The notes: generated from the sequence alone by a model not told the origin. A DNA stretch of 63,853 nt, filler included, from Cystobasidiomycetes sp. EMM_F5 (GCA_051047955.1; 7 parts of 7 records of this genome joined end to end with filler, not necessarily neighbours in it), one strand, 5' to 3'. Shown: positions 1 through 57,139, numbered from the whole stretch's first letter. Translations and numbers: made by a program.

Positions 1-2
1 TG

Positions 3-23325: not shown

Positions 23326-23379
23326 ACCTGAAGTCCGAAGAAGCCCGAAGTGGAGACTTCGGTGGGAGCTCGGCTCACA
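23326..23379 (-). repeat. Start of the 3' LTR of element 1 (TGTGAGCCGAGCTC...)
   Basis: Begins TG immediately after the PPT on the minus strand; matches the solo LTR end at 527-576. Confidence 0.8.
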
Positions 23380-23390
23380 TTCCATCCCCC
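23380..23390 (-). other. Polypurine tract GGGGGATGGAA of element 1
   Basis: Purine run abutting the LTR TG. Confidence 0.75.
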
Positions 23391-23655
23391 TAGAAAAGCT
23401 GAGTCCATATGACGAAAGCGTATGTGTGTAAACGTGTATATAGACCAGTTTCAGAGCTGTAGAAGCACTTTGGAAGTCACCGTATTACGTCCGTTGAACG
23501 GTTGTAGACTCCGAAGTGGCACGATCGTACTTCGAGAACAAAAAATTTTTGTCCGAAGTGGCGGAGGCGGGTTGTTTAACAACAACAACACCAACAGCAA
23601 CAGTGAGTTGTGTTTCGGTTTGTGTCGACTTCGTTGTGCTGACACTTCGTGGCAG

Positions 23656-25330
23656 ATGGCTCCATCCAAGCGACAATTTGCACAGGCTGCGGCCTCCAAC
23701 ACCGAGATGCGATTGCCAGGTCGCATAACAAGATCTGGTGCTTCTAGGAATCTGGAAGTGCCAATGGCGACTGTGAGTTCATTTTGTCAACTTCAAGCTT
23801 GCGCTGAAGTGGGTTCGCAGGGACCGTTTTCCGGTTCCGGCAGTCCTCGCGGCAGCTCGCCTGCGTCGACGATTGAAGAAGCACCGGAGGCTTCGCAGAC
23901 CTTGCAGGAGGCTGCAGCACCGGGTGCTGTCGAAGAAGCGGCTGGTCCAGCTGAGATTGGCGAAAAAGGGACCGAAGTAGGTTCCGAAGTGGCCGAAGTG
24001 CCTGCCGAAGTAGGAACCGAACTGGTTCCCGAAGTAGCTGGTGGACCGGCTGTTGAAGGAGAGGCGGCCGCCAACGACGTTCTGGATATAGCAGATCAAG
24101 ACGTCAACAACGTTGAGGCTGGCGAGCCGATTCATCACGCCGAAGATGCCGGCCTGCAGCTGGCTCAGCAAGAGGAGCAGGCGCCTGGCGGTGAACTGCC
24201 AGAGGAGGATATGCAGGGCCTCCAGATTCTGCTGGGCGGCGTCGTCATTCCAGGCGCAGCGGCGCTCGGTCCGGGACCAGCTCGCATAGTGGCTGGCAAG
24301 AGGGTCGACGGGGCCAGGTGCTCCAGGTGCCTCAAAACCGGAGTGCCAGAGCGCCTCTGCTTCCCGAAGGCTCCAACAGCGCCTAAGGGCTTTGCCAACG
24401 CACCGGCATGTTGCATGCGTTGCTCTTTGAAAAAGGAGGGCAAGCAATGCGAAAGTAGGTCCGAACTCGAGCAATACCAAGTATTAGCTGACGTTTGTTT
24501 CAGATCCACCTACTTGGGGTGACGGCGAGTTCGGCGCCGCAGCGTACAAGCTTGTGCGCGAGGAACTGGTGCAGTTCCTCAGTGAGTTTGACTTTGACTT
24601 CGGGCTGCGAAGTGGATCCGAAGTTGATCCGAAGTGGCCCGAAGTGGGTCGAAGTACGCGAAGTGACCCAAACTGATGTACTTTCGTCTTCTAGAGCCCG
24701 CGACAGATGCTGAGGGAGGTGCCAACGCGCCCGAAGCAAGCGGATCGACAGCCGTGAGGCGCCAATCAGGTGAGTAGTTGTACTTCGGTCGCGGAAGCTG
24801 AAGCTAAAGATGAAATTAGTTCCTCGACGAAAGTCGACTACGCCGGCTACACAAGTAGTCGCAACTCATCGCCCGGCTGGATGGAAGAAGGGCAAGAAGA
24901 GGGCCGCTCGACAGTCCGACGACGAAGAGGAGCAGCAAGAAGAAGAAGCTTCTTCGGAGGCAGGCAAGGAGTATGATGAGGACCTCGCTCCTCTAGGCGT
25001 CGGACCCAAGACTGGGGCACAGGGAAGGAAGCGACCCCGGATGGGCTTTGTCCCGAATGCACCTCGCCCTGGTGGGCCGGCCCGTCTCGCCCAAGAGAAG
25101 TGGTCGTCACGCGGACCGCAAAATACGTCCATGACAACGAACTGGTGTCGGCCGGGTTTAGTAGGGCCGCACCTAATACCGAAATGGAAATGGCCACCGC
25201 CTTGCAAGTCTTGGCAGACGAGCGAAGCTTCACTGGCGATGCCATTTTGCTCCAGGTTCTATCTCGAGGACTGAAAGCGGCGTGGGACGAATTCTGGCGC
25301 CTTTGGGAAGGCATGAGTCAACCCGAGTAA
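23656..25330 (+). CDS. Antisense accessory gene of element 1; spliced, acidic low-complexity protein with Zn2Cys6-like motif
   Basis: Introns 23773-23820, 24455-24503, 24582-24694 and 24770-24819 (plus 23603-23655 before the ATG) have GTRAGT/GTAGGT donors, branch-like CTRA sites and YAG acceptors. They join an open frame ending at 25274; a frameshifted alternative tail ends at 25330. Motif C-x2-C-x9-C-x17-C-x2-C-x8-C; basic NLS-like KKGKKR and RKRPR. Confidence 0.75.
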
Positions 25331-25731: not shown

Positions 25732-28543
25732 CTACTTCGGTAGAGCCGAAGTGGTCCGAACTGCGGCCGAAGTGGAGGGAACTTCTTCAGTTCTCTTGGT
25801 AAGCCTCCACTCACGTACTGCAGCAGGGCTATCCTTGTTAATGACACTAACAGGCTCCCATGACGGATCGGGGTAGCCTTCCCAGTGACATTCATATTTG
25901 CGAATAGGTTTCTGGGTCTTTTCGTCCATTATGAGTGCTTCATTGGTAATCTTGTCAAGCTTCCAGTACATGTCTCCATCGTCGTTCATACGAGTTGGTC
26001 CTACACGCTGAGGCTGTTCTCGGTCGGCAACGGAGTTCGGTTCCGGTTTCCGAAGTAGTTTCAGAAGTGAAACAGGAAAGGTACTGTGTTTTCGATTGAA
26101 AGGAGGAGTTAGTAGTAGACGAGCAGCATTATCGCCGATCATCTTTTCAATGACAAATGGTCCTACAAATGGGTCTTTTAGTTTTGAACTTCCCACAGTT
26201 CCGAAGTGCCTTGTCGAGAGCAGCACTTCATCTCCAGCAGCGAACTTCGCGGCGACATGTGAAGAATCCCAGCGAGCTTTGTGAGCTTCAAATGCTCCTT
26301 CAACAACAGCATCGTGAGCTCTGTCACGCGCGTGTTCTATCATTGAAGCGATGTTCTCAGCGCTAGGGTCGACTTCGACCGAAGTGGAGATGGTTCCCGC
26401 TATAATTCCAAAAGGAGACTTGGGAATCCATCCTCGCTCCAAAATGTAGGGAGCTTTGTTGGTTACAGCGTGCGGTGTCGAATTATAAGCGTACTGAAGT
26501 GCCGGAAGTAGGTCCACCCAGTCGTGCCTGAATCCTTCTTTGTCTCGATGTTCAAGACCGAAAGCACAGTATCTACGGATCATATCGACCAGTGTCTGGA
26601 TAATTCTTTCAGCTAACCCATCAGTCTGTGGATGATGAGCTGTAGACATGTTGAGTTTGACTCCCAGTCTTCTTTGGAGGTACTTCCAGAAGTCCGAAGT
26701 GAACTTCGGGTCTCTATCCGAGATGATGATCCGAGGAAAGCCTACGTCAGAGTAACAGTGTTTCCAGAAGACAGTGGCGACGTCTTTGGCGGTGGCTGTA
26801 TCCCGAAGTGGCAGAAAGCGAGCCGACTTGGTCGCTCTGTCACATATAGCCAGTACGCTGTTGAATCCCGAAGTGGCCGAAGTAGGAAGTGCGGTTACGA
26901 AGTCCATATGAATGATGTCCCAAGGCCTCTTCGGGTTCTCAATATGCTGGAGCAATCCTGCTTGCTTACCTGTGGTACGTTTAGATAGTGCACAAGTAGT
27001 GCATGTCTTGCACCATGTCTCAACGTCGCTGTTCATATCAGGCCACCAAGCGTGTTGCCGAACTCGTTCTAGAGTTCGGTCAAATCCGAAGTGCCCCGAA
27101 GTGAGCTGGTCATGACAGGCAGCGATGATCATCTGCTTTGTAGGAGTGTCTCCAATGCAGGGAAGTGCAGATACACCTTTCCGAAGATGTAGAGCATCGT
27201 CGAAGAGGAAGAACTGCCCACTTCGGAAGTACTCGAGTGTACTTCGGGGAAGTCCGACTTCGGCTGCCTGTTTGGTATCTTCGGTTTCACTTCGAAGTGC
27301 CTCTCTAATGCGAGCTAGACGCGCATCAAGGTCTATTCCTGCCTTGATAGTGGCATCTAGATCGTCGTTGAGTTCGGCGATGTTGATGGCGTAGATAACT
27401 GCAACGTTATCTGTCAGTTCGGCAGCGGGATTACTCACATCATTGGGTAATGCGCATCTGCTGAGTCCATCAGCATTCTTATTGGTTACACCAGGTTTAT
27501 GGTGAATTGTCATTTGTCCCCTGTGCTCTTGGATAGCCAATTGCCAGCGTAACATATGTCGGTTGGGGTTCTTGACCGTCATTAACGTCTGAATTGCTAC
27601 GCAATCAGTGTATACTGCGAAGGTAGAGCCATCCAGGTAATAATAGAGCTTCTCTAGAGCCCAGATTAGTCCTAAGCATTCCAGCTGTGTTGCGGCATAG
27701 CGTTCTTCTGCCGGGCGGAGACGTCTGGAGATGAAAGCAATGGGTCGTTCCTTGCCTTCTTGAATTTGTGCAAGCTCTGCACCCAGTCCTTCAAAGCAAG
27801 CGTCTATATACAGCCGAAAAGGCTGATTCCAGTCTGGCATTGCTAGGATTGCGGGATCTAGAAGGGCTTTCTTCGAATCTTCGAAGGAAGTCTGACAAGC
27901 AGCGGTCCATTCCCATATAACATCTTTACTGAGCAGTGAGGACATAGGACGGAGTATTTTAGCCAGATCCTTGATGTGCGCTCGGTGATAATTGATAAAT
28001 CCCAGGTACGCCTGAAGTGTCTTCAAGTTCCGAGGGGCTGGCCAGTCCCGAACTGCAGCCAGTTTGTTATCATCGATAGCAAGATACAAACCTGATACAT
28101 GCCGTCCTAGAGCGATGAGATCTGAGCATCCGAAGTGGCACTTCGGGATCGAGACAGTGAACCCGGCCACTTCGAGTGCACTTAAGATTTTCCGAAGTGA
28201 CTCGATGTGCTCTTCAAAAGTCTTGTTGAAGATGAGGATGTCGTCAATATATACTATAGCCCATCCTTCCTGAATATACTTCCCTAGCACAGTGTTCATG
28301 GCGTGCTGGAAGTGTACAGGCGCGTTCTTCAGTCCGAAGGGCATGCGTACGTACTCGTAAAGTCCGCGGTACGTAGTAAATGCGGTATATTGAATGGAAT
28401 CCTCGTGTACCCAGCATTGATGGAAGCCTTTATTCAGATCCAATGTTGTGAAGTACTTAGCGTCTTTAAGTAATGCTAAGGTTTCCTGAATGCGGGGCAA
28501 CGGATAGACGAAGGCCTTTGTGTAGTCATTCAAAGCCTTGTAG
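25732..28543 (-). CDS. pol: Pol of element 1: reverse transcriptase, RNase H, integrase, chromodomain
   Basis: YPLPRI, LDLNKGFHQ, MPFGLKNAP, YIDD, YIDAC, HDQLTSGHFG...CTTC, HMDFV, ISDRD, DGLAER, GPF, YECHWEGYPDPSWEP. Confidence 0.93.
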
Positions 28544-31500
28544 TTAGTAGGGTTAGTAGGGAGAGTCGCGCCTTTTCGCCTTTATAGACCATGACAATGG
28601 GAGAGGAGAACTGACTCTTTGATGGTCGAATAACTCCTAGTTTGAGTAGGTCATCGATGATTATTGAGATGTCCTGTTTTGTCTTCGGCGAAGTGGGGTA
28701 AGGAGCGGCTCTTAGCTTTACCGGTATTGGGTCTGGTAATTCAACTTCGATCTGTAGAGGTGGCATCTTGCATTCGCCAAGCTGCCTGTCTCCAAAAGCA
28801 AACGCCATCTTGTACTTAAAGAGTACTGCTTTTATAACCCGAAGTTGATCCGAAGTCAGCCCCGAACTGAACTCGGCCTTCCGAAGTGCAGTTCCGAAGT
28901 CGTCTTCTACGAGAGCCATTACCTGTAAAGGATTAGCTGTGGTTACCTGAGACGTTCCCAACGCATAGCGGTTTGGGTTTGTCCCAATCTTGAGCCAACG
29001 GCCTCGAGCGGAGAACAGGTTGAATCCGTATCTGTTCATCACATTGGATCCCACCAGGATCTGTACTCCTGTAGTTGGTAGGTCTAGTACGGTGAATGAT
29101 GCCTGAATTCGAACACTACCTCGCGGGTGTGGGAAAAGCAGAGGTGTCAGATACGTTCCAATAGTCTGAAGTCGGGAGCCGAAGGCAGTGGCTACGGCTT
29201 TGGCTCCGATGATGGTAGTGACATAGCCCGGATCCAATGATTCAAGTAGTGACTTAGAGATCACAGAGATTGATGCACCAGTATCGAGTAGTACCTTGAT
29301 TGGTTTGTTGCATACTACTGCAAGTACTGTCGGAAGTACTCCGAACTGGTCATCCGAAGTGGTCTTGACGGGCTGTAAGTCTATGATGCGGTGCGGAAGA
29401 ACGGTGTTATTCAGCATACTCATAGCAGCCTCATCAGTCAGTGCTACTGGATCATTAAAAGCCCTAGTCTTCTTTGGCGAAGTGCGGACCGAAGTGGTCT
29501 CGCCAACTTCAGAAGTGAAGTGAACTTCGGGCTGAAGTTCCGAAGTGGAAGTTGCACTTCCAGTAGTATCCTCTGCCCTGCATAGAGCCGCAACTGTGGC
29601 TAGTTGGTGCTGAAGAGTCTCGAAGTCACCATCGTCGCGGTCCCAGGGTCCTATTTCAGGATACATGGTATTGTTGTCGTCGGTGTCGAGAGTTCGGACC
29701 GCATTAATATGGTAGACTACTTCGTCCACGGGATAGTCGTCGTAGTGACCATCTTCTTGGTCGTACTCGTCTTGAGCTGGTTCCTGTTGATCCAGTTGTT
29801 CGTCCAGTTCGTCTTCTTCTTCGGGCACTTCAGTAAGTGCATGGACACTTCGGTTGGGGCATTCTGCCTTAGTATGACCCGGCTTCTTACATTGGAAGCA
29901 GAGTCTACGTTCCCGAAGGTCATCGCGTTCTGCCTGACTCATCTGTGGTCTGAACGAAGAAGCCTTCTTCGGTTCCGAAGTGGCCTGCTTGGAAGAAGCA
30001 TATCGCTGCTCCGAAGTAGACTTATCCGCACTGGAAGAAGAACTGTAAGCCTGAGGACGTTGTGTAGCTCTTACTGAGTGGTTATTAGACCTCTGCGGAG
30101 GAGCTGGCCGCGTCTCTCGCCGAGAAGTCAGGTCCGAAGTGCGTCCCCGCTCTTCGTGCCTGGCGTTCTGCTGAAAGAGAGCGATAAAGTCCGTAAGCTT
30201 GCTGATACCAGGAACGAGTGGCTGTATTACTGTAGCTAGTACTGCTGGCGACACTTGATCCAGAAGTTCGTAGCACATGTCGTGAATACCTCGACCTGGA
30301 TCCACAGTTCGTGAAAGTCTGAAATATTCATTGCAGAACTTCGTCGGATCATGTTCGCTCTTAGGGAAACGGTAGCCAGCCAGCTTATTACGCTGTCTTC
30401 GTTTCCAATCTGGAGTTTCGAAGTAATCTACGATTTCTTGCTTCCAGTCTTGCCATCCGATTGGAACATCAGGATCAAGGACTCGGGTAGAGTACCAAGC
30501 CCTAGCTCTTCCGGTAAGTAGTTCGGGAAGGAGTCCAACTATCCAATTCTCGGGGACATTACCGTAGAGAATCCTAGTGTCGATGCGTGTAAACCAATCT
30601 TGATGGTTGCTTTCTGGATGCCCGTCGTAACTCGGAAGATCACTGGCTTTAGGCTGGTTGGGTTTGATCTTCTGAACATAGGACGTCCCATCAGTGTATA
30701 CCTCGGCCTCTGTTACTTCCGGGACTAGTATTGGATCTTTAGCCAGGACTGGAAGTACACTTCGGCGGTTCGGAAGTAGGGCGGGCTCAGAAGTGGCCCG
30801 AAGTGGTACTGAAGTGGGCCGAAGTGGTACTGAAGTGGGCTGAAGTGGCACTTCAGGTCTTCCCGAAGTGAATCTGACTTCTGAAGTGTACTTCGGCAGA
30901 TTTTCAGGCCTTGTCCGAACTGGAGGTGCAGGCGCAAGTGAAGCCAAGGTTGGTTCAAGCTTAGACCGATGGTCGTAAAAGATGTCTCTTGCATCTCTAT
31001 AAGCAGCTCCGGCGGCTTGAAGTTCTCCAGTAGTGTATGCTAGTGCCTTGACAACTTCTTGAAGTGTCGTAGTGACTCTACCGAAGCTTTCTACTTGTTG
31101 CTCCACCTTTTGAGCTAGCTGTTCTTGTCGATGCGTGTGCCAAGTATTTGCTTCTATCATGACATCGACACTGTTGCCAAACTTGCGAAGTAGTCGCTGC
31201 AAGTCTTGGGGTGGAGCGTGGGGATGACTAGGATGAAGATTCGAGGAAGCAGCAACCGGCTCGCTAAACGCAGGAGACTTGGGAAGCGCCGGTTTGAAAC
31301 GAGGATCTTCCATATAGAACTGCTGTGGCTCAACAAGAGTGGGGAACCATGGGCGGAGCGGCGAGCGGAGAAGCAAGCTCTGGTCTCCGGGGTTGTTTAC
31401 CTTTGTCCTGAGTTGAAATAGCAGGTGTGGGAGACTGTGGCTCTTCCAATCCCAAGTTGTTGTCGGGTAAATCAAAAAATTTACTAGACGTTTGAGAAGC

Positions 31501-31710
31501 CTCGATAAGGGCGAGTGCTTCTGGTGTCGCCATCGTGTTAGGGTAATGTACAACCCGACTGAGAGGCGGAGTGTACTGATTTGCCTGTGGCAGAGTAGAT
31601 GTACTCTGTACCGGAGTCGATTCTCCAGGTACTTCGGGTACCAAAGGGAGGTACCTGAATCGACGGGTGGGTAGTGGTGTTCCCAGGGTGATGGGAGTTC
31701 TTGAAGCCAT
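28544..31710 (-). CDS. gag: Gag-protease part of element 1 (frameshifts near 31343 and 28550)
   Basis: MASRTPITLG start; LTGRARAWY capsid-like region; CFQCKKPGHTKAEC; LLDTGAS; the RT N-terminus (IRPSKSQFSSPIVMV) is in the same frame. Confidence 0.88.
30790..30857 (+). repeat. 21-bp tandem repeat CCGAAGTGGTACTGAAGTGGG within gag
   Basis: About three units; encodes PLQPTSVPLRPTSVPLRATSE. Confidence 0.8.
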
Positions 31711-32119
31711 AGTTGAGATCTTTAGTAGACCTCGCGCTACCAGGTGAAAGCCTAGTAACCGGTAGGTCGAAGCTGAAGTGCACTTCGGTGGGATCCGAAG
31801 TGGTTCCTGGGAGCCGAAGTGCAGAGGCGAGACTTCGGTGTACCGGAAGTACTAGCTAATCTGAGGATCTTGTACTAAATCAGCTATGGGTCAAGGTAAT
31901 AGGAGCTTACAATGGTAGATCTGGATTGCCGAGATCTAGAAGTGCCTATTGATGTATAATTTGTACTTCGTCTTGGCCGAAGTACACTTCTCAGACTTCT
32001 ACTTGGTAGAAGTGGGCGAAGTACGATATTAATTATTTAATATCGTTAAAATACCGTTAAATATTATAATAAAAACTTATTATAAAATTCCGTATTGATT
32101 GGTGCTAAGGAAAGGTAGC

Positions 32120-32439
32120 CCGAAGTGGAACCGAAGTGTACTTCGAGTCCCCGAAGTGGATCCGAAGTGGGGCCGAAGTGCAGTTCGGTGGCGTTGGGCG
32201 AGCCGAAGTGCAGTTCGGGTCCGAAGTGCGGTCCGAAGTAGAAGTACCTTTCCGAAGTGAGGATAATAGAAGAACTGGATAGAGTATTGCTTCTAGAATG
32301 TACTCAAAGAAGTATTACGCTTAACCAGAAGTGGATATCGATTGTATTGAAGAAACCGAAGTGCACTTCGGGGTCCGAAGTGAGTCCGAAGTGCGGCCGA
32401 AGTGACCGAAGTGTGCCTTAAGTCGAAGTGGCACTTCGG
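32120..32439 (+). repeat. Clusters of CCGAAGT heptamers in the 5' leader of element 1
   Basis: CCGAAGT at 32120, 32131, 32151, 32162, 32173, 32203, 32221, 32233, 32252, 32356, 32375, 32386, 32397 and 32406; ACTTCGG at 32365 and 32433. Confidence 0.92.
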
Positions 32440-33095
32440 GCACGGGTTGTCTTCTGACAATTCAATATAAAATAGATGTAGGATCGATTGTAGATGTAGA
32501 ATACGTTGTAATATGTATTATATTAAACGTAGATGTAANNNNNNNNNNNNNNNNNNNNNNNNNNNNNNNNNNNNNNNNNNNNTTAATTAATTAANNNNNN
32601 NNNNNNNNNNNNNNNNNNNNNNNNNNNNNNNNNNNNNNTGTTTGTATGAATCGTTGAGACCAATGCCATTACCGCGTTGCCGAGGAACCGAGGCCGAGCA
32701 GGAGACCTGATGGTGGGCTTCATTTGATGACTAGTACTTCTCGAAGAGCTGGGGATTCTGCAGCGCCCGACACAAGTCTCACCATTCGACACCGAGCTGT
32801 CTCAGTCAGTCGACAAACTCACTTTGCATCATCATCATGCCTGCGCGTGGTGTCCGAAAACGGTCTCTGGCCGGATTCGCACGCTTCGCGTACAGGCCCA
32901 CACTGTCAGTATAGCTCGGTCACACGCTGAAAGGATACTCGCAGGTCTCACAAGTTACAGATGTGATACGAAAGTCTGCGCGGGCGTCACTCTCCGCTTG
33001 CTCCCAACCATATCGCCGCTTGATCCTATCGGAAGATCTCTACCAGCGTCATAAGCTATCGTGCTTTCGATACTATCTCCCTCCTTTCGACTGCG

Positions 33096-33554
33096 CATCA
33101 TCATATCATCACGACTTTCGCGTGTCTTGCCATCGCCTCGCACGTTACTGGAGCCGCGCCGGTTCTAATGACTGTGACTCTGGGTTCATATCATCCCGTC
33201 CTTTCCGAGAGCGTGGTCGGCGCGGGCGCGACATTCACATTTGCCGATGCTATGAATGGCCGGACTGTGAAACCAGGTCCTTTCACTATGTCATCTGGCA
33301 TGCTCTACTTTGAGCCAACGCAGACTACAACGTTGGACGTGCCCGACACTACAGGCAGCGCTCAACTCGGTCATGCTCCGGCTAACCGTCAATGCTTGTG
33401 TTGTGAATTGGCCGCAATACCTCTCCCTACACGACCTATCATCACCTGTGCCCAGTGTAGGGTACATTGTAGTTTTCTCATCCATAATCTGTCTCTTTTT
33501 CCGTGGAAGAGCATTGCGCATCGGCCGATTATTGCGTATGCGGCAGTCATTTAA
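33096..33554 (+). CDS. Small protein, paralog of 34168-34494 (no in-frame ATG before its signal-like segment; gene or relic)
   Basis: HHIITTFACLAIASHVTGAAPVLMTVTLGSYHPVLSESVVGAGATFTFADAMNG...GPFTMSSGMLYFEPTQTTT. Confidence 0.55.
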   Translation, partial: HHHIITTFACLAIASHVTGAAPVLMTVTLGSYHPVLSESVVGAGATFTFADAMNGRTVKPGPFTMSSGMLYFEPTQTTTLDVPDTTGSAQLGHAPANRQCLCCELAAIPLPTRPIITCAQCRVHCSFLIHNLSLFPWKSIAHRPIIAYAAVI

Positions 33555-34167
33555 GAAGCGTCGCTAAATGCAGAATCCACCTAAGACTGCGCGGGAATGC
33601 GGTTCTGCCTGTGCTCTACTTTTTCCCGCAGTATGTATGTCACGCAATAAGCTTCAGGTCATGGCTGGGGAATCGATGGTTTTCCACTAATTCTAAACCG
33701 TACCAGATTGATTTACATCACTACAGGAGGCTCGCCGAAGTAGATCCACTTTCTCTAGTCGTCTCCTCGGTGCACAGATGCTCTGTCTAGGCATTGCTTG
33801 CTTGACGGGTCGTGCAGGGAGGCAGCCTTTGTGACAGAACACCATCCTCCTTTCGTCCAGACTCGGTTCTGGCAATCGATCGATGGAGCTTTGCCGGTCG
33901 TCTAACCCCACTCTTTCATCGGGGACAATCACAGCCGGCAAGGGTCCAAGTCGGATTCTACCCCTCGAGTAGGCGGTGAAATAAAGGGTTCTGAAGAAAA
34001 GAGAGTGGCCAAAGGTATTCGTCTGCGCCTCCGAACATTGAGTCTCGAGTGCCGCAGATTCGCTCTCCTCCTCTCTGCACATCGCAAAGTCCGATAATCC
34101 GAATCACACCAAACAGTATCTCCCTCATCATCCACAACAAGCACTCCTCTCGACTACCTCCTCGATC

Positions 34168-45899: not shown

Positions 45900-46641
45900 T
45901 TAAATGCCCTTCTCCAGGTCCTTCAAATCCATGAGAATCTCGCCGTTTGGCCCCATCTTCAGATAAGCGACTTCGTCGATAGACTCGAGTTTCTCTTCAA
46001 GCATCAGCTTGCCATTCCCGAACCAATCGATTCGGCTACTCTGCGTAGTCAAATACGTCAGGCCACAACCAAGATCGCTCTCTAATTACGTTTGTGCAGT
46101 GTTTGAACGAAACTTACAGCGTCCGACGTGAATACGTAGTCGGCATCATTGATGTTGGCGATGGTCGCACCGAAGTGCGCTACACTGCCAGGGTATGGCA
46201 CGTACAGCCGACCGCTATTGGTTTTGTCTATGCCAAGGTGTCAGCAGTGCGAAGACCTCAGCAGCAGGATCCGATGGCTTACACCAGGATCTACAGGTTC
46301 CACTCCAAACCCAATGAGGGTATCGAGCCTGCATCCATTCGTTCTAGTCTCGCTGAGCCTCCTCTGTAGGCATAAAAGTCCGGTAGTTTCTAGCAATCAT
46401 CCTGTCGACCATGTTACGGAGAAAAGTGCTGCACATCTGAGCTGTACTATATCCGTTGACAGCCGGAGTGCCAGGGCCTGATATGATTGCGAGAGTATGA
46501 GAATTCTGCAAGCTGACAATCAGATTTCGTTCCGGTTCATTAACCTTGACCTCACGGTTGGTGACGTTCCCCAAGAACGTAATAGGATACTCCGACCACA
46601 CGTCGGCAAGGTTTGGACCATTCAGCCCGCGAATTGGTAGT
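45900..46641 (-). pseudogene. Flavin-dependent Baeyer-Villiger-type monooxygenase, 3' fragment with premature stop
   Basis: LPIRGLNGPNLADVW; ISGPGTP; PTEEAQRD*NEWMQ; VWSGTCRSW/YKTNSGRLYVPYPGS; WFGNG. Introns intact, 5' portion absent. Confidence 0.8.
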
Positions 46642-46660
46642 CTTGCGTGGGAGCTTGCAG

Positions 46661-47030
46661 AGCGGCTAAGACAGTCAATATTGCACTCACGGAACAAGCC
46701 GCAGTGGATCATGGACCTGACGAGATCAGAGTCAACGAAATCCTTCCAGGCTTCATCAAAGTACGTACTGGTTGCAGCGTCCGATGTCCGCAGCTAAGCT
46801 GGATTTAAATCATCCTACAGACGCCTCTGTCTGCCGTATTAGCTACGGAAACCATGACAGCCGAACAAACAATGGATGCCTTCAGTAGCCTGACTTCATT
46901 GAAACGCTCGGGTAACCCTCTCGAGGTTGGCAAAGCCAGCGCGTTTTTAATCTCTGATGATGCCAGCTACATTACCGCGACCAGCTTGACAGTGGATGGA
47001 GGATATCTAGCCTGTGGACGAAGCATCTAA
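46661..47030 (+). pseudogene. Short-chain dehydrogenase/reductase, 3' fragment
   Basis: AAKTVNIALTEQAAVDHGPDEIRVNEILPGFIK/TP...LKRSGNPLEVGKASAFLISDDASYITATSLTVDGG; no N-terminal Rossmann exon. Confidence 0.8.
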
Positions 47031-47706
47031 TATATAGAACTCAGCATAGTATTGTCACTATTCCCATGGCCGTCTCCAGACTTGCTTGACCCGCAAAGCA
47101 ATTGGCGACATACCCGGCAGTCTCGTAGACAGCCGTGCGATACCCGGAAACTTCGAGCGGGCAGCATGTAGGCCTGTCGTGCGAAAGCGATTGTCACGGA
47201 AATACCCTTCCTCGCTAATCATGCATCCTAAACTTTGGAGTTAAATTGTCTGGTCAGGACTGCACCGATATCTTGAGGTAGCTGCGGTTCATGAGAACAC
47301 TTCTGTACAATCCGCCCAATTCGTCCTAATTCGCCCTGAAGCGAGCTCTGATGAGCTGCATCCGGTGACTTGTCAGCAACGCCCGTATGTCGGTGCCGGT
47401 GTATCAAATGGCTCATCGACAGGATATCCTGCATTCTCCCTCTCTATGCGTTGCGATAATGCAGAAACACGCGAAAGCATCAGAATCAGGGTTTCGCACA
47501 CGCGACCTAGCTCTCTCGTCAGCTGATTAGCTGTTTGGGCTCTGTAGCAGGCGATGCAGAGGTAGTCAGGTTTGCGCGAGATCCTCGCAATGGTCCTTAT
47601 CTCTCCATTTCATCGAAAGTAGCCAGTGCAGGCTGCCTAGTGCATATTCGCTATAGGTTTGTGGAGAGGCGTTCGGACTGGCCAGCGCTTATACCAACGC
47701 TTGGCT

Positions 47707-49375
47707 CTATCCTTGCAGCGGCAGACTGCATATCTCGCAATCAACAACCCCTGGCGGATTGACAAACGTGCAATGGGGGCATGTTATTTCTCCTTGAGTA
47801 CCACCTCCTGCTGCATTAGCGGCTTCCATTAGCTCTGGTGGAATGGCGAAGTCGTCCGCCCTTTGGCCACTTGTATTCGTTTCCCCTGCACCAGACTTGC
47901 GCATCATGTCGTGATCTTCGGGAATGATTGGGAAGCCATCGGCATCGAGCGGGAATTCTGGTGCGCTTGGTGCTGCACCAACGATATCGCCTCTGGCCCG
48001 AGCAGACGGTTTCGGGGCGTGTTCCGCAGCGATGGTAGCTAGCGTTTGCCATGCAGGGGACTTGAGAAGAGCTTCAATATCCTCCGCCTTTTTCGTTGTC
48101 GCTATTTTGGCTAGCAGCGCCATATCCACTTGATCGAAGATACCGACCGTATCCAGAAACGCTAACAAGTGCCAGTCGGATAACCATTGTGTGAGCGCTT
48201 TCGATCCGTCACTGATGTCTTCACGTTGCTTGCCCTTCAAAGCCGAAGACGGTGACGTCAGCATCTCGAAGCCATCTGCATCGAGGCGTTGAGGTAGCGT
48301 CTCTATTATCTTGTTCAAACTGCCCAAAGCCTTTTCCAGAGTCTGGTCTTCAAGGCCTTGTCGATTCTCAACCGGAAATGCAGAATTTGCAGGTGCGATG
48401 AAAAGCGGATTTGGAGTGTTCGGAAAGCCATTCGTAAGCTGTGAACATAAGGTTAGTGCAGGCAATATGTGGAGAAAGTAAAACGTCGTACAGAAACAAG
48501 GAGGTAGTCTGTTGGAAAGCATGGTTTTGCGCTTTCTTTCACTTGCAATTTGTACTCGTTGATGTAGGTGTAAAAGACGTCGGGGATATAGCGCTTCTTC
48601 GTGATGTCGACGCTAGCGCTCGTATCTTCTGTTATTCGAACGATACCGGGATCTACACTGGGTTCTACCATATCCGCTTCAACCAGGGCCATCCCCTGAT
48701 CTGACACTTGATACGCATCTACAGCAATAGCGCCTTCCAGGTTGCCCGTGACGACACAGGTTACGAATTTGGATGAAAAGCGTCCAGTGTCAGAGAAGCG
48801 GGAGGAATTTGGCCTTTGCATCTGTTGCTTTGCTGCGAACAGTGCTTCAAGAGATGAGAGAAAAAATGAATCTTTGTGCCGCTTTGTTATCGCTGCCTTG
48901 TCCTTGACACCGGCAGGAGGTGCAGTCAAATCCGTAAAGATCATGCCCACAACCTTGAGACCACACATCTGAGCCAGTGAGTCAATCTTTCCAGCATCTT
49001 CCCATGGCAGACCGAGTCGTAGCCCGTCGACGTCCCCTTCTTGCGGTGGCTCATGTATAGCTTCGACGACAGCCTTGACGCCCATTGGCACGATATCGTA
49101 GGCTTCGTACCGGCCTAAAAGCCAGCCAAAGCGTTGCATGCCAGTCTTTCGCCAGAATTTGAGCATATTCTCAATGAGGTCGGCCGACGCAAATTCAACG
49201 TGATCCACCATGCGGTACTGTTGTAACGCCAAGGTCACTGCTGAAGGCTGACATTTCGTACATATACCAGCTGGCCAAGCGGGGTGTGAGCCGGATGGAC
49301 AGGGAACTTTGACCTTGTAATCCGGCTGCGAGAGTGGCGGTATAAATGTATTTGAGGCAGCGGCGGTCGTCTTGT
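47707..49375 (-). CDS. NPL4: Nuclear protein localization protein 4 (Cdc48 cofactor), 5' end lost at contig edge
   Basis: HPAWPAGICTKCQPSAVTLALQQYRMVDHVEF; QRFGWLLGRY; VEAIHEPPQ; FSSKFVT; FPVENR; C-terminal NZF finger CPHCTFVN...CEIC. Confidence 0.95.
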
Positions 49376-49683: not shown

Positions 49684-50210
49684 TGTCAGACCGTGACATC
49701 ACCCCCGTCTGTAGCTCTGAGCTCCTGCGAAGCGGTTTCGGGTGTTCGGCCGAAAATTTGCTGAATTTGGCAATACCTCTTGAAGAAGAAGTTGTACGGA
49801 ATTTTCGATCACTTTTTCGATCTCGTGAGAAAATATGCTTCCGAATGGTACATAATAAGAAGGGGGTTCCGAAAACTCGATCGCTGACTAAGCATAGTCG
49901 TAGTGCCACCAAAACGTGGCACATTCGAAATCAAAATTGTTCCCTGATTCTCGGCGATCATTTTGGTGTACTTGGTATAGGGGGTTGTCGATCTTGTTTT
50001 AGAGTAATTCGACTTTTAGTGCCAAAAGTTGGGATATATATAGGTGGTTCATATTTGATCCTAGTACCAAAAAGTTTTTCGGGCGACCTAGCTTACTGGT
50101 CGGGTACCTGCTTAGTCATCTTTGGCAGCGGGTCACGGGTTCGAGTCCCGAAGCACGAAATTCTTAAGACCGCAGAAATTCGCCAATTTCGGATTGTGGA
50201 CGTCATCACA
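49684..50210 (-). repeat. Probable LTR of element 2
   Basis: On the minus strand it begins TGTGATGAC just after a purine-rich AGGGGAGG (50217-50224) and ends ...TCTGACA. No second copy in the window confirms the left boundary. Confidence 0.5.
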
Positions 50211-50639
50211 GCGGTGCCTCCCCTGGTGTGATGACTAAGCGTTCGGGTTGTCGGGTTTCCTCTATCCTTAAGTCCGACTAGACCGAACTGTGATGCTTTG
50301 CCGGAGATATCCGGTAGGGGGAGGCCATCACAGTGACGTCGAAGTCGGATGGGTAGAGGTCGAGTCGAGCGAACGGGATGATCGTACCTTGCAGCCGGTC
50401 GAGAGGACGTACCTGGTCTTGGACCGGGGAACCTCTTTGCCGAAAGTTACAAGGTGTTCGGGTTCGGCTTTCGGGTTTCGGGTGTTCGAGTGGAAGAATT
50501 GGAATCTTCCAAAGTTCGATCACGGAAGGTTCGATTGGGATTGGGTTTATAAGGCGCGCAGCTTGCTTTCTGCTCTTGTCTTCGTTCCAACCACTTCATT
50601 TGCCACCAACTTTGGGTTTCGTGCCATTCGAAAACAAAG

Positions 50640-51502
50640 ATGTCCGAAAGTTCGAAGCCCCAGGCTAAGCCGGTGGAGTACCATATGGTCGACGGAGAGA
50701 AAGTCAAGATGGCTACCGCATGTCCGCCATGTGTCAATGCGGGCGAGACATGTTATCAAGCGAAAAAGGATGTCGGTAAACCAGGCGAACCGCCTTGCTA
50801 CAGATGCAAGGGCTTGACGAAGGGGCCGAAGTATTGTACCGGTTCGAAGATACCCCCAAAGAGTCCGTCGAAGGTCATCGACATAGTCGATAGTGATTCG
50901 CCTATGGGTATGTCCGAACGTTCGGGTCGAAGTTCAGTTCGGTCTGATGTTATATTGTAGAAGTTGCCTCGAAACCTAAGGCAGTAAAGACCACCAATGA
51001 TGCCACGCCAAAAGCATCCACCGTTCGTATGGCAGAGACTGCAAAGTACGAGCCTCTGGTGCCTTTGGCGGTTCCGGCGATTCGTTCTTGGCAAGAACTC
51101 CTGAGCAAGACGCCTTCGGCCTCCTATTTGATGTCCGAACGTAGCTTGGACACGAAGGTTCGTAGTCTTTGCACTGCTTTGTTCAACAGTACCGCTTGCG
51201 GGGCCGACAATGCTCGAACAGTCAACATTATCGAATGGCTCGAGTTCGCTTTTGCCAAATCGAAGGCAGGTGTTTCGGTTGCCGAAGTGCGACAGGCGAC
51301 CGAACAGCACGAAGTGCAATTCGTCAAGGTCGATAAGGGAAAGAAGCGGGATCTGTCGGAGATGAATGAAGGAGTCCAAATCGAAGAATCGGGTACCGCG
51401 CCCAAGGTACAGGTTCTTGATGTAGAGGCTGGACCTTCGGGAACTTCGGGTGTCGCCGATACTTCGACTAGCACGGAGAATGGGGAGAGTTCGGAGAAGT
51501 AA
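50640..51502 (+). CDS. Antisense accessory gene of element 2; 269 aa, Zn2Cys6-like motif, one intron
   Basis: TATAA at 50548. CPPC-x6-C-x14-CYRC-x9-C. Intron 50908-50960 (GTATGT...CTGAT...TAG) joins the two ORFs in frame. Confidence 0.78.
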
Positions 51503-51708: not shown

Positions 51709-54700
51709 CTAACGTCGAACCGCAGGTTCGGAAGTTGTTCGATGTTCCGAAGGGGCTCGCCATACTGGTCGACCACGAGTGTCACTCATAGCTCGAGGTC
51801 GCTTTCGAGGAGTCGAAGGTGTCCGAACAAGATCTTTCGGACTTGGCTTGTGTGGAAACCGAGCGTGATACTCGTCAACTACGTCGGTGAGATTGACTAA
51901 GTCGGCTGCAGGAACCCAGCTGAATTGTTCGGCTGTGTCTTCATATCCTAGCCAATCGATTCGGTACTCTAAACGGTGTTTGCGTTTGTTGATTCGGGAG
52001 TCGACGATGTCTCGAACAGCATAGACTTCTTCTTCGAGGTCGACAGGACCAGGAGGTTCAACTGTACGGCCTTCAATAGTACTTTCGGGTATAGGCCGAA
52101 GTAGAGCTACGTGGAAGACAGGATGGATTGCCGAAAGTTCTGGAGGTAAGTCCAGTTTGTATGCTAGTTCGGAGATCTTTTCTGAGACGGTGAAGGGTCC
52201 GATGTACTTTTCGGAGAACTTGCGAGTTGGTCGAGTTGTTCGGAGGTTTTCCGTCGAGAGCAGGACTTGCTTTCCGACTTCGATGGTATGTTCACTCCTT
52301 TTTCGGTCGGCATAATGCTTCTGATCCGCTTGTGCGTTAGACAGTGTGATTCGAATACGGTCATGGAGCTCTTGTAGCTGAAAGGCATATCGATTGCCTG
52401 GTCCAGCAGTGGCGCCGGGGACAACCGACAAAGATGGATCGAATCCATAAATTGCACGGAACGGTGAAGTACCTGTCGATGTATGGTCTGCGTTGTTGTA
52501 CGCAAATTCGGCTAAGGGTAGCCATTCGGACCAGTCGTCTTGCTGGTAAGCGCAATATATGCGGATGTATTGTTCGAGAGTCTGATTGACTCGTTCGGTT
52601 TGACCATCCGTTTCGGGATGGTAGGCTGTAGATAGTTTGCGATTGATACTGAGTCGAGAGCATAAGGCTTTCCAAAACTTGGATACGAACTTCGAGCCGC
52701 GGTCGGACACGATGTCGTCGGGTAAGCCGTGCTTCGAAAATATGTGTTTGAGAAAGAGAGTCGCTAAGTCTCTCGAAGTAGACGTAACTACTGTTGGAAT
52801 GAAGACTGCCATCTTAGTGAAACGACAGACAACGACAAGTATGGAGTCGAAATTATCGGAAGCGGGTAGCTTTTCGATGAAATCCATGGAAAGTGAAGAC
52901 CATGGTCGTTCGGGAACGGGTAAGGGCTGGAGAGGTCCGAAAGGTTTGGTCCTAAGCGGCTTGTTGCGTGCACACTTCATGCAGGTCGCAATGTAGTCGG
53001 AGACGAATTCTTTCGGGGCTCGCCAGTCGGGTCGTCATGCTTTTGACGTAAGATGCGAAGCTTGATGGCTTCATCAGCTGGTACAGCAATTCGGGAATCC
53101 AGGAGAAGTACGCCATCTTCGCGAAGGGACGGAACCAGTTTCGCGTTGGCGACATCAATTTTGGCCTTGTGTTCTTGTAAGATGAGATCTTCATCCTGTG
53201 CACGGATGAGACTGACGACGAAATCATCTTCGGGCGGTTCGATTTGTCGGACCGTCGAGATTTTGGGTGAAATGTGTGAGTGCGTAAGGAAACGCACAGA
53301 AGTTTCGGTAGAATCGAAACCGTTGACTTGATGTGACTTGATCAGAGTCGCGAAATTGTGAGGGTTGTTTCTGGCATAGGCGCCATCCCCTCCGGTAGGA
53401 TACACGTCGTCCCGACGTGACAGTGCATCAGGCTTATCGCTATGTTTACCAGGCCGATACGTAATCGCGAAATTGTAGTCGGCAAGCATTTCGGCCCAGC
53501 GGACCTGCCGTCTGGTGAGTTGCTTATTTGTCATAAAATAGACGAGTGCTTGATGGTCTGTCAAGACCTGGATGGGTTCGGACGTTGAGAGAAGCATCGA
53601 TCTCCATCGCTTGAACGCCCAGACAATAGCGAGTAGCTCCTTGTCATGGATTTCGTAGTTTAGTTCGGCTGGCAATAATTTGCGAGAGTCGAACGCAATG
53701 GGATGTAGAAGACCGTCTTCGCCATTCTGCGATAGGATGGTACCGATAGCATAGTCGGATGCATCGGTCTCCAGATAAGTGGTTGCATTAGGGTCGAAGT
53801 GCCGAAGGATAGGCGCTGAGGTGAACCTAGTCTTGAGTGACTCGAAAGCTGACTGACATTTGTCAGACCAGGTGAAAGCCGAATCCTTCTTCGTAAGCGC
53901 GGTCAAAGGCGAGACGACTTTGGAATAGTCGCGAATAAATCGCCTGTAGAAGTTGGCAAAGCCGAGGAACGACTGGACGGCTTTGACATGCCGAGGAATT
54001 GGCCAGTCGACTACGGTCTGGACCTTAGTCGGGTCCATGCGGAGACCGTTGATGCCCACAAGATAGCCGAGGAATTCGACTTCGGGCACACCGAAAGTAC
54101 ACTTGCTCGCCTTCGCGTATAGATTGTTCGCGCGCAGCAACGAAAGTACTTTTCGGACGTGCTCGACATGCTCGTCGGGGCTGGAAGAATAGACCAGAAT
54201 ATCGTCAAGATAAACAACAACGAAATGGTCGAGGTGTTCCCGGAAAACATCGTTCATGAGATGTTGAAACGCAGAGGGTGCGTTCGTCAAGCCGAAGGGC
54301 ATGACAAGGAATTCAAAGGAGCCGTATCGACAACGGAATGTCGTTTTCCACTCGTGGCCAGCAGCAATTCGCAGAAGGTGATACGCTCCACGAAGGTCGA
54401 TCTTTGAGTAGATGCTAGCTCCGCGCAGCTGCTCCAGAAGAAAGTTGATCGGCGGAAGTGGATACTTGTTCTTCTTGGTTCGGAGATTTAGCTGACGGTA
54501 GTCTATGCACATCCGCAGAGAAGCGTCTTTCTTCTTGACGAATAGCACTGGTGCACCGATGGGTGCAGTGGAAGCTCGGATAAAACCCATAGACAAGAGG
54601 GTGTCAATTTCTGTCTTGAGGGCTTGTGATTCGGCCGAAGAGGTCGAATAGATGGGGCCAACAGCTGGGATGTCAGACTCATCGAGCAGTTCGATGGCAT

Positions 54701-55390
54701 GATCATAAGGGCGGTGCGGTGGAAGGCGTTCCGCTCTGGCCTTGGAGAAAACGTCCAGATATTCGCTATACTCCGAAGGCACGACACGAAGGATATCTTC
54801 GATGTCGTCGGGATCCTCGTCAGGATCGAAAAAGAAAGAGGGGTCGTTGGCGCGAGAACGACCAGATGGTGTGGCAGGACCAGACTTCGTCATAGCTAAA
54901 TGGGAGTCGGTCGGAAGACGTGGAGAGTCCGCAAGCTCCCAGGAATCGTCTGAAATAAGGGGGAACACTAAAGTGCCTTTGTCCCAATCGAAATTCGGTC
55001 GGGCTTTTCGACACCAAGACATGCCAAGTAAGATTCTGGCAGTCGAAGGTAGGGATGTTATGAGAAGTAATGTCGGCAGCGTGGGACCTGCGACATGGCT
55101 AACCACATCGACTATGATGTACTCAGAGATGTCTTCGGCCTGACTTCCATCTACCATGATGAGAGGAATCGGTTCAGGACACGATTGTCGCATGAAACTC
55201 GGGACTAGGGTATGGTCGATGTAAGAGTCGGTGGCACCCGTGTCGATGCATGCGCTGATGATTTGTGCAGAAATCTCGGGAACTTTTACGAAGTGCACAA
55301 TGGACTTAGGCTCTGGCTGACCGTTCCGAATGGTCGAGATGCGCGCTGGTCCAGAGCGAGCCTCCAGGCGCATATGGAGCTCGCTATCTA
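51709..55390 (-). CDS. pol: Pol of element 2 (protease, RT, RNase H, integrase, chromodomain); broken near 53015
   Basis: [58 protein letters not shown]. Deletion and frameshift in the integrase zinc finger. Confidence 0.93.
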
Positions 55391-56824
55391 GTTTTTTGGC
55401 TGTGCTCGGTGAGCAGAGTCATTCGACGCCACTCGAGCTGTGCTTTGTTGAGGCTTGACCGAACAGTGGTCGATCTTGTGAGGACCGCCGCAATATGCGC
55501 ATAGTCCCTTCTCGGCACGACGTGTTCGTTCGGCATCGTTGATACGACCTTTGCTGTTCAGGACCTTGTCGAGGTTTGGTTTGCTCGAAGAAGTGTTGTT
55601 CGACTTTGGCTGGAATCGAACTTGATTGTTCGAACGATTCGGGAAGCGAGTCGAAGGACGGGGAACGAAAGGTCGATATTCTCGTTCGCGTGGAGGTGCG
55701 TCCTCACGAGAACGATGAGATCCTGGCACACTGACTGATGCACCGTAACGTCTACGGCGAAGCTTCTTGTCTCGTTCGGCTTCCCAGTAGGCGTTGTCGA
55801 GCTCGAGCGCTAGCTCCTGAAGACCCGAAAGCGTCAGAGGCTTTCGATGATGTTTGAGGTCTTCGAGAAGTCGTTCGGGAAGACCGAGCTTGAAGTGATA
55901 CATCAAGGAAGCTTGATCCCACATAACGCGAGTCTGATGGGTTCGGAAATGAGTAAGGTAAGTCGATATCTCATCTCTATCGTCCATCTTGATGTTGTTG
56001 AGCTCATGTTCGGCCGTCGCTTCGGCATTCATGTCACCGAAGACAGCGGACAGAGACTCCTTGAACAATGTCCAATTGTTCAGCATACGATATGCTTCGG
56101 GTTTCGTCTCATCCAGGATGGGTTCGAACCAATCGGCTGCAACTCCTCCAAGATACGAGCCAGCATACAGTACTTTGGCTTCGTCCGAACGGAATCGGTT
56201 CTTGTGATGAAGAAATACGATTGCGAGTTGATTCAGAAAAGGGCGGAGTTTCGCACGATTAACTCCATCGAATTTGTCAGCAGATCGTGCAGGAGGTTCC
56301 TTGAAAGAGACGACCTCGCTAGGCTTGCTTTCGGCTCGTTCGGCTCTTGCTGAACTTTGATTTACTAGTGCCTTGGCAATTGCTTTCCAGTCATCATCTT
56401 CGGATGATATTTCGAGTTTCGGAAGGCCATCGTGGTGTCCCGGGTTCTCGACTTCTTCCGAAAAATCACGAGCTGGGTCTTGAGATTCGGTTGGATGTTC
56501 TGCAGCTTCGAGGCTGGCCAGTCGAGCTGCGACTCGGGCCTCTTCGAGTTCGAGACTCTTGAGACGTCTTTGCAGTTCTCGTTCTTTGACTGACAGCTCT
56601 GCATTCTGTACATCCAGATCTACTCGTTCGACTTCAATGCGAGCCTTGCGAGCAGCGACATTCTCTTCGGTTTCGGATGAGAGATTCGAAGGAAGAGTGC
56701 TTTCGGAGATCTTCGTCGCCTGAACATTGGCGGCTCCGACTGGGAACGACGGTTGTGTCGTTGAGAGATCAATGTCGAGAAGTTCTCGATTCTTGTTGCG
56801 AGAGGTTGTGGATCTTGTATCCAT
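55388..56824 (-). CDS. gag: Gag of element 2
   Basis: KFDG...[23 protein letters not shown] (retrotransposon gag pattern); knuckle [13 protein letters not shown]. Confidence 0.9.
55391..55397 (-). promoter_or_regulatory. -1 ribosomal frameshift heptamer A AAA AAC at the gag stop
   Basis: CCA AAA AAC TAG; the -1 frame continues CTA GAT AGC GAG CTC CAT ATG CGC into pol. Confidence 0.8.
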
Positions 56825-57139
56825 GTTGACATGCGAAGTAGGTATTGGTACTAGTAAACTGTAAGGGGACGTGGCTTTGAGCTGGTTCGAAGACCGAAGA
56901 CTCGAAAGTTCGGACCCGAACTGGGATTCGAAANNNNNNNNNNNNNNNNNNNNNNNNNNNNNNNNNNNNNNNNNNNNTTAATTAATTAANNNNNNNNNNN
57001 NNNNNNNNNNNNNNNNNNNNNNNNNNNNNNNNNTCTTATCTTTTTTAGATAATCTAAAAAGGATAAATAATCGAAACATAAAAAAAAATAAGGGATCAGA
57101 AGGAGCTGAATTTTGAGAATTCAATTAATGTAATAAAAA

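Follow-up and report, generated by a model that had tools for sequence, protein, structure and literature searches.

Genes lying antisense at the 3' end of a retroelement are known from animal retroviruses, where HBZ of human T-cell leukaemia virus type 1 (HTLV-1) is a spliced, transcription-factor-like bZIP protein. The HTLV-1 antisense promoter is located in the 3' long terminal repeat (LTR), and antisense open reading frames (ORFs) between pol and the 3' LTR, termed aORF-3R, have been reported from the plant elements Grande of maize (gene23), RIRE2 of rice, Retand of Silene and PvRetro13; some of their products are nuclear, and in the part of that account drawn on here their function is given as unknown and no clear similarity to other proteins is noted (PMC7264820). 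A fungal example is the gene brtn of the Botrytis element Boty (cited in PMC8365987, in part). Of another kind are the VANDAL elements of Arabidopsis, Mutator-like transposons whose VANC21 protein binds the motif YAGTATTAY, which, according to the part of PMC5735166 used here, is highly enriched in its own VANDAL21 family, lies mainly in non-coding sequence and forms dense one-orientation arrays via tandem repeats. Here we describe two LTR retrotransposons in a 63,853-base stretch of DNA from Cystobasidiomycetes sp. EMM_F5 (the window, consisting of seven contigs separated by spacers of N), each of which combines a predicted spliced antisense gene downstream of pol, coding for a six-cysteine protein, with a short word repeated along the element.

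As in VANC and VANDAL, an accessory gene carried by a transposon is thereby paired with a short word that is in excess in that transposon, the excess being high and the copies arrayed in one orientation in one of the two elements. Unlike the VANDAL elements, which are DNA transposons, the elements described here are LTR retrotransposons, and gag and pol are seeded with the word whereas VANC21 motifs are mainly non-coding; moreover, binding and loss of silencing have been shown for VANC, whereas the present elements are known from their sequence alone. With aORF-3R the antisense genes share position, orientation and conservation within a lineage, the boundary between polypurine tract (PPT) and 3' LTR being located in one element only, and they differ from the accounts of aORF-3R in the part of PMC7264820 referred to above by the six-cysteine module and the element-wide motif. 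Like HBZ they lie antisense at the 3' end of a retroelement, but the TATA-like box of the one gene for which it was seen (element 1 below) resides inside of the PPT and not in the LTR. Antisense genes of LTR elements and VANC-type arrays are both already known, and the combination found here is a variant of those kinds; a search of the open-access literature revealed no account of fungal LTR elements in which a cysteine-rich antisense gene goes along with a motif seeded over the whole element.

Antisense genes downstream of pol in two chromoviruses

By their predicted domains, contig 3 (23326-32538; element 1, 9.2 kb) and contig 6 (49476-56933; element 2, 7.5 kb) are chromodomain Ty3/Gypsy elements (chromoviruses). 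In both, comparison with Pfam yields on the minus strand gag (zinc knuckle or Retrotrans_gag), protease (PR), RVT_1, RT_RNaseH, integrase (IN), SH3_Tf2-1 and Chromo, the chromodomain match having E=1.5e-8 in element 2 and, below the cut-off, E=0.0037 in element 1. Since their reverse transcriptase (RT)-RNase H regions are only 35% identical, the two elements belong to different families, in agreement with the first-pass annotation of the window, which had proposed that each of them encodes an antisense Zn2Cys6-like protein recognising a motif of its own. Downstream of pol, each element has its antisense gene on the plus strand, that of element 1 being located inside of the PPT at 23380-23391, and both genes look genuine, with the following predicted features:

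23656..25330, plus strand: element 1 antisense gene, six exons, 451 amino acids (aa); NCBI model EMMF5_006536 (protein P0006)
~23656-23772, 23821-24454, 24504-24582, 24695-24769, ~24817-25107 and 25166-25330, plus strand: its exons, placed by exact matching
24319..24450, plus strand: element 1 cysteine domain, C-x2-C-x9-C-x16-CC-x2-C-x8-C, residues 206-249 of P0006
50640..50907, plus strand: element 2 antisense exon 1, ATG at 50640, 89 codons plus 1 nucleotide (nt)
50908..50960, plus strand: element 2 antisense intron, 53 nt, GTATGT..TAG, phase 1, containing CCGAACGTTCGG
50961..51502, plus strand: element 2 antisense exon 2, in phase, to the TAA stop at 51500-51502
50721..50837, plus strand: element 2 cysteine domain, C-x2-C-x6-C-x14-C-x2-C-x9-C, residues 28-66

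Of the five introns of the element 1 gene, most show GT..AG flanks at their junctions, and intron 2 holds a TAGCTGAC-type branch point, while the two frames of the element 2 gene join only if the 53-nt intron is removed. The genome is an Illumina-only SPAdes assembly annotated with funannotate, RNA data not being mentioned (PMC12697161); therefore, the elements are represented by short contigs in which the LTRs are not duplicated, and the NCBI model of the element 1 gene is ab initio. As the genes are antisense, their introns would, judging from the replication cycle, survive passage through the sense RNA. The proposal of a spliced antisense six-cysteine gene between pol and the PPT thus holds for both elements with respect to the introns, the strings of cysteines and the position downstream of pol, but in element 2 no PPT could be located, there being no 15-nt window in which 14 or more positions are purines.

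Searching with the element 1 antisense protein returned only the protein itself and its NCBI model. The gene of element 2 is likewise absent among named database proteins, and its exon 2 matched only the window's own ORF. Compared with 1.84 billion representative proteins, exon 1 of element 2 gave three matches at E<=0.001 (P0008, P0007 and P0009), of which P0009, a repeat protein, was judged spurious. P0008, a 92-aa protein that is 36% identical over residues 20-76 (E=1.4e-4), is a true homologue; it alone was recovered with a three-sequence profile, and a scan of viral contigs with an integrase alignment gave 178 pattern matches, none of which was confirmed. The remaining match, P0007 (372 aa, from a metagenome), contains at least four repeats of a KPCxxCKGSRKGVxYC module (C-x2-C-x9-C), a half-module that also occurs in each of the two antisense proteins.

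Two metagenome contigs, L001 and L002, contain the DNA coding for P0008, and both carry a pol that is 73% identical to that of element 2 as well as a matching two-exon antisense gene with a phase-1 intron at the corresponding place. In L001 this gene lies downstream of pol on the opposite strand, exon 1 (798-1047) being followed by a 49-nt GTATGT..AG intron of phase 1 (1048-1096). With respect to element 2, pol of L001 is 73% identical and antisense exon 2 is 27% identical (E=4e-11), and position, orientation, intron phase, both frames and all six cysteines are kept, the spacing of the latter being identical also in P0010. Because the predicted gene is much more diverged than pol (27-36% vs 73%) and yet retains its frames, intron phase and six cysteines, it behaves as a functional, fast-evolving accessory gene. 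L001 and L002 themselves are 99.64% identical, and their 11 differences (three non-synonymous in the tail of exon 1, two non-synonymous in pol and six non-coding) are too few to be interpreted.

Two further observations concern the metagenome contigs. At 1110-1170 of L001, within antisense exon 2, there are four copies of CTCCGAAG encoding T/A-P-K repeats, which recall SPKK-type basic motifs. In addition, a near-perfect contiguous array of heat-shock elements (TTCnnGAA units) is found at 600-700 and 1-80 of L001 and at 520-570 of L002, i.e., some 100-200 bp upstream of the L001 antisense ATG and also within a 43-nt tandem repeat at one end of the contig.

With regard to the remaining anatomy, the following features were recognised in element 1:

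23326..23379, minus strand: first 54 nt of the 3' LTR; the sense strand begins TGTG directly after the purine tract, and the contig stops here
23380..23391, minus strand: putative PPT AGGGGGATGGAA, from position and composition
25735..28581, minus strand: RT-RNase H-integrase-SH3-chromodomain frame (Pfam)
28533..31710, minus strand: gag (CCHC knuckle) and protease frame (Pfam)
31728..31742, minus strand: primer-binding-site-like TGGTAGCGCGAGGTC, 2 nt after the LTR end ..CA, from position
31745..32538, minus strand: partial 5' LTR, with the densest motif arrays at 32118-32258 and 32350-32440

and in element 2:

55391..56824, minus strand: gag (Pfam)
55391..55397, minus strand: slippery heptamer A_AAA_AAC, a canonical -1 frameshift site directly before the gag stop
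52980..55418, minus strand: protease-RT-RNase H frame (Pfam)
51712..53034, minus strand: integrase-SH3-chromodomain frame (Pfam)

The two gag-pol strategies ascribed to these elements, a single ORF in element 1 and a -1 frameshift in element 2, can be retained as the original state, the latter by virtue of the slippery heptamer, but both copies are broken, one in the N-terminus of RT and the other in the integrase. In element 1 the sole frame break, at 28530-28581, falls after '...VYKGEKAR' within the conserved RT N-terminus and beside a duplicated CCTACTAAC, and for these reasons we take it for a mutation that disrupted what had been a single gag-pol ORF, and not for a programmed frameshift. 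In element 2, some 14 codons of the HHCC region of the integrase are missing when compared to the intact relative L001, and the frame shifts at ~52977-53034; judging from this deletion and frame change, the copy is probably defective. A candidate tRNA at 50060-50160 in the 3' region of element 2, where the B-box/T-arm-like GGGTTCGAGTCCCG lies at 50136-50150, was dismissed as neither ARAGORN nor Rfam found one there.

A short word repeated along the elements

With expectations taken from 200 dinucleotide-preserving shuffles, the word CCGAAGT/ACTTCGG is found 73 times in contig 3 as compared to 1.3 expected occurrences (z=65), and the 8-mer CCGAAGTG 49 times as compared to 0.3, whereas each of the five other non-element contigs contains zero to three copies of the former and each other contig of the window zero or one copy of the latter. 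In contig 6, CCGAA/TTCGG occurs 101 times where 24.1 are expected (z=17.6), with CGAA (235 vs 109 expected) and TCGA (114 vs 65 expected) being raised as well. The four host contigs, which provide a background of only ~40 kb, have no excess of CCGAA-type words (|z| <=2.6), TTCGAA reaching z 3.4 in contig 1. The dense seeding of both elements and the rarity of the words in host DNA are therefore as the first-pass annotation had described them; the two palindromes that it had named occur once each.

The host contigs and the remaining contig of the window are:

1-13912: contig 1, host genes
14013-23225: contig 2, host genes
32639-41455: contig 4, host genes
41556-49375: contig 5, host genes
57034-63853: contig 7, mitochondrial, 35% G+C, with small-subunit rRNA at 61859-63581 and three tRNAs

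Contigs 1, 2, 4 and 5 carry ordinary genes such as those for a carboxylesterase, NPL4 and a glycosyltransferase fragment. Contig 1 also contains a direct repeat of ~650 bp (787-1432 and 13267-13912, 98-100% identical over most of its length), the two copies of which lie 12,480 bp apart with host-type ORFs in between, the second one reaching the contig end.

The full word of element 1 is (C/G)CACTTCGG, with the logo (C/G)-C-A-C-T-T-C-G-G, while element 2 has neither a flank preference past TTCG(G/A) nor any periodicity of spacing. In L001, CCGAA occurs 26 times (11.2 expected) and TCCGAA 16 times (3.4 expected), and when all 6-mers are ranked without bias the words heading the lists of the four host contigs have no relation to TCCGAA. 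That each element has a motif of its own is accordingly only half true, since CCGAAGTG is confined to element 1 within the window, but the CCGAA core, which element 1 extends to CCGAAGTG, is common to elements 1, 2 and L001.

In element 1 the motif is densest in the 5' LTR and untranslated region (25.4 per kb, with 21 copies in 31711-32538), where arrays lie on either side of an AT-rich, TATA-like stretch, followed by the 3' end (12.1), RT-IN (6.3), the antisense gene (6.0) and gag-PR (5.8), as compared to 0.1-0.3 per kb in the host contigs. In element 2 the density of its motif is 8-28 per kb across all seven segments. Arrays or clusters in and near the antisense genes are:

23972..24035, plus strand: CCGAAGT array in antisense exon 2 of element 1, encoding xEV repeats
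24597..24660, plus strand: CCGAAGT array with an 11-bp period in antisense intron 3 of element 1
50440..50500, plus strand: TTCGG cluster ~150-200 bp upstream of the element 2 antisense ATG

A further array at 30798-30870, in gag of element 1, encodes LRPTSVP-type peptide repeats. Such tandem arrays within coding sequence, which give rise to peptide repeats both in the antisense protein (xEV) and in gag, might be taken to mean that the pattern has no function at all, the arrays having arisen by slippage or template switching, the dispersed copies by context-biased mutation or conversion, and the antisense ORFs being incidental. The placement of the copies within the coding sequence bears on this possibility. 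When synonymous codons were permuted 300 times within each ORF, so that the protein and the codon usage of the ORF were kept, the 7-mer of element 1 was found 18 times in gag-PR (mean of shuffles 3.5, maximum 8) and 18 times in RT-IN (2.6, maximum 7), and the 5-mer of element 2 was found 24 times in gag (8.6, maximum 15), 20 times in PR-RT (8.4, maximum 17) and 21 times in IN (9.0, maximum 16). In all five gag and pol frames the observed number thus exceeds every synonymous-codon shuffle (z 4.6-10.8), which means that the force is exerted at the level of the nucleotides rather than on the encoded protein.

The positions of the copies are not conserved. Over 778 aligned codons of pol, only one of the 29 motif sites of element 2 is also a motif in L001, and in 10 of the 29 L001 has the same amino acids with other codons (GCC-GAA vs GCG-GAA or GCC-GAG); motif positions therefore turn over fast, density being kept and place not. 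While this lack of positional conservation would be in line with a functionless pattern, such an origin leaves unexplained that a specific 8-9-mer exceeds expectation ~150-fold at isolated synonymous sites, and that frame, intron phase and all six cysteines persist in the antisense gene at 27-36% identity when pol is at 73%. To our knowledge no mutational process writes a specific 8-9-mer at isolated synonymous sites 150-fold over expectation, and we consider the functionless alternative highly improbable.

Same-orientation spacings in element 1 peak at 11, 21, 31 and 42 bp, with counts of 8, 6, 6 and 5 for CGAAGT, and for GAAGT the peaks comprise 12 pairs at 11 bp, 14 at 21 bp, 9 each at 30 and 31 bp, and 8 at 42 bp. 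The resulting figure of ~10.5 bp fits the helical repeat of B-DNA, but tandem duplication of 9-12-bp units gives the same figure.

Copies of the element 1 motif are oriented ~3:1 in one direction in every compartment (54 of 73 overall; 26 vs 10 in gag-pol). Such a strand bias, together with the distribution of copies throughout the transcribed body including its synonymous sites, would be in keeping with an RNA word, dispersed copies of which on the full-length genomic transcript might serve Gag/nucleocapsid, or a factor for export or stability, as binding sites and so bring about selective packaging or protection. On the other hand, the favoured strand is the opposite one in element 2, sense-strand counts being 75 TTCGG vs 37 CCGAA in element 1 and 66 CCGAA vs 35 TTCGG in element 2, so that the RNA words would differ between the elements, and a phase of ~10.5 bp is in keeping with duplex DNA. 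As the RNA form of the word, a C(UUCG)G tetraloop hairpin was rejected, since its flanks do not pair and the required base T is present in only 24 of 112 sites. An RNA word is for us very unlikely.

Two kinds of DNA site were also rejected as the identity of the word. Canonical heat-shock elements do not account for it, for there is no three-unit heat-shock element in contigs 3 and 6, as opposed to seven overlapping matches in L001. Nor do Gal4-type CGG/CCG dyads, as neither element shows a preferred inverted or everted spacing, and element 1 has direct repeats with a period of 9-12 bp.

The six-cysteine module

The cysteine domain of both antisense proteins presumably binds zinc. It resembles the Zn(II)2Cys6 cluster of Gal4 and Ppr1 in having six cysteines in two CxxC-containing halves, the first half of element 2 being a canonical C-x2-C-x6-C, and the repeated word contains CGG/CCG. 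The canonical spacing of Zn(II)2Cys6 proteins is C-x2-C-x6-C-x5-12-C-x2-C-x6-8-C, and two of the five cysteine spacings are out of these ranges in each antisense protein: element 2 has 14 residues between the halves and a last spacing of 9, while element 1 has x9 in its first half and 16 residues between the halves, with a last spacing of 8. In addition, the Pfam family Zn_clus (PF00172) gave no match at E<=1 for the ORFs, and none at E<=10 for P0002 (element 2's own exon), P0008, P0006 and the isolated element 1 module, at a setting where the HMMER filters discard most matches above ~0.1. A phmmer search of the PDB at E<=10 returned no zinc-cluster chain, P0002 matching cytochrome c and a LIM protein and P0006 nothing. 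The Zn2Cys6-like nature assigned to the proteins by the first-pass annotation is therefore supported neither by profile or structure database matches nor by spacing or CGG/CCG dyads.

The only Pfam family to surface for the cysteine modules is DUF3716 (PF12511), in each case below its cut-off of 22 bits. The match of the element 1 module spans profile positions 7-57 of 59 and reaches 14.3 bits (E=0.04), that of P0008 10.9 bits (E=0.44). Look-alike lists from the ESM Atlas, compiled separately for both proteins, contain the same cluster, 28% of whose members have DUF3716, the scores of 0.77-0.84 being leads only. By profile searches, then, the module does not appear to be Zn2Cys6 and shows its closest, weak resemblance to DUF3716.

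This resemblance would be of interest in view of what has been reported for DUF3716 proteins. Two DUF3716 genes, REP9-1 and REP9-2, are carried by a class II transposon of Zymoseptoria (PMC8232023, in part), i.e., not by an LTR element, and a Fusarium DUF3716 protein has been described as an orthologue of Neurospora NCU05718 (PMC10776026, in part). For NCU05718 itself, direct binding to double-stranded TTAGGG repeats has been reported, in a protein without an annotated DNA-binding domain as far as the part of PMC4650311 used here describes it. Members of the family thus ride in a transposon, and one group of orthologues binds double-stranded repeat DNA.

As to the rest of the element 1 protein, P0006 modelled alone with AlphaFold2 is mostly disordered, and the low-confidence model has helices at 260-280 and 388-447. 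Its acidic and basic stretches and the C-terminal helices are, by inference from the sequence and this model, reminiscent of a transcription factor.

Candidate readers of the word

The density of the word, its phasing, the single orientation within arrays and a shared double-stranded core with opposite strand preferences argue for a reader of duplex DNA. The natural and most likely candidate for this reader is the element's own six-cysteine protein, since antisense gene and motif are present together in all three elements, since the putative zinc module would belong to a family with a DNA-binding member, and since the protein has transcription-factor-like features and the gene and its intron themselves hold arrays. 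According to this proposal, an antisense gene between pol and the 3' end, in the arrangement of aORF-3R, would make a small six-cysteine protein, and the DNA of each element would be under nucleotide-level pressure for a word with a TTCGG/CCGAA core, extended in element 1 and being TTCG(G/A) in element 2 and its relative. The word would be a double-stranded binding site, copies of which line up along one face of the helix in the LTR and lie scattered over the body of the element, and the protein binding it might mark the whole element as self and keep transcription open, or otherwise regulate it, as VANC does on VANDAL. While the anatomy of the elements, the gene models with their conservation, and the excess, synonymous placement and spacing of the motif are shown here, zinc binding, DNA binding, the identity of the reader and the consequence of binding we infer, and we put forward the reading of a duplex-DNA word by the element's own protein as possible but tentative.

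It is also conceivable that the word is read by a conserved DNA-binding factor of the host, e.g., a genuine Zn2Cys6 regulator, the motif being an enhancer of the LTR, copies of which have since invaded the body of the element. The antisense protein would then do other work, such as the control of transposition or the production of antisense RNA, as proposed for antisense aORFs and for HTLV HBZ. Yeast zinc-cluster factors such as Ppr1 typically have TTCGG/CCGAA half-sites, and a host reader would account for the same core being found in two families with undetectably related accessory proteins as well as in a third element from another organism. Moreover, the densest arrays of element 1 flank the TATA-like stretch of its LTR, and the heat-shock-element array upstream of the L001 antisense gene shows that host factors are recruited in this lineage. 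An enhancer alone, however, leaves the seeding of synonymous positions of gag and pol unexplained, copies of the word are scarce in the host contigs 1, 2, 4 and 5 (CCGAAGTG zero or one per contig, in ~40 kb of host DNA), and dyads of fixed spacing are found in neither element. On balance, a host reader seems to us somewhat unlikely, though nearly as probable as reading by the element's own protein.

Reading by the element's own protein, in turn, has to contend with a number of observations that speak against it. No homology is detectable between the antisense proteins of the two elements, either by BLASTP or by hhalign (probability 1.2% for the cysteine modules and 0.07% for the remainder); MAFFT can bring the six cysteines of both into register, which is a matter of pattern and not evidence of homology. 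As proteins without detectable relationship are accompanied by the same core word, a common host reader fits this finding at least as well. The similarities to DUF3716 are sub-threshold, with P0002 having no match at all, and the mean predicted local distance difference test (pLDDT) values of the AlphaFold2 models, 50.6 for exon 1 (three-row alignment) and 44.5 for P0006, are too low to serve as fold evidence. As for the word, that of element 2 is only 5 nt long, and 32 of the 46 coding CCGAA copies are NCC-GAA dicodons; the aligned pol of L001 has only 10 motif sites, of which one is also a motif in element 2; and the excess in L001 is modest, its top 6-mer TCCGAA having z 7.3 as compared to z 4-6 for the top k-mers of the host contigs. 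To these the orientation bias of element 1 in every compartment has to be added, which would suit an RNA signal as well. Furthermore, gene and motif do occur together in three of three elements, but two of these had been picked for both features by the first-pass annotation. Finally, the pol frames of both copies in this assembly are broken, so that present-day activity is uncertain.

Extended to the group as a whole, the proposal would be that LTR retrotransposons of basidiomycete yeasts encode sequence-specific DNA-binding proteins, DUF3716-like and antisense, which read an element-wide barcode for self-recognition; in this general form we hold it to be unlikely. Even without the link to the protein, element 1 provides an unusually clean case of constraint at the nucleotide level, with an 8-mer that is found 49 times in 9.2 kb and is phased with the helical repeat, in a yeast that is harmless and can be cultured. 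If the proposal is true, this would be the first self-recognition system encoded by a transposon to be known from a retrotransposon and from fungi, where it would parallel that of VANC, and a role would be found for some, at least, of the antisense ORFs that have long been a puzzle in LTR elements. It would also assign a DNA-binding role to DUF3716, a fungal domain of unknown function that rides in DNA transposons as well, and it would mean that synonymous sites of a mobile element can come to hold a binding code through selection.

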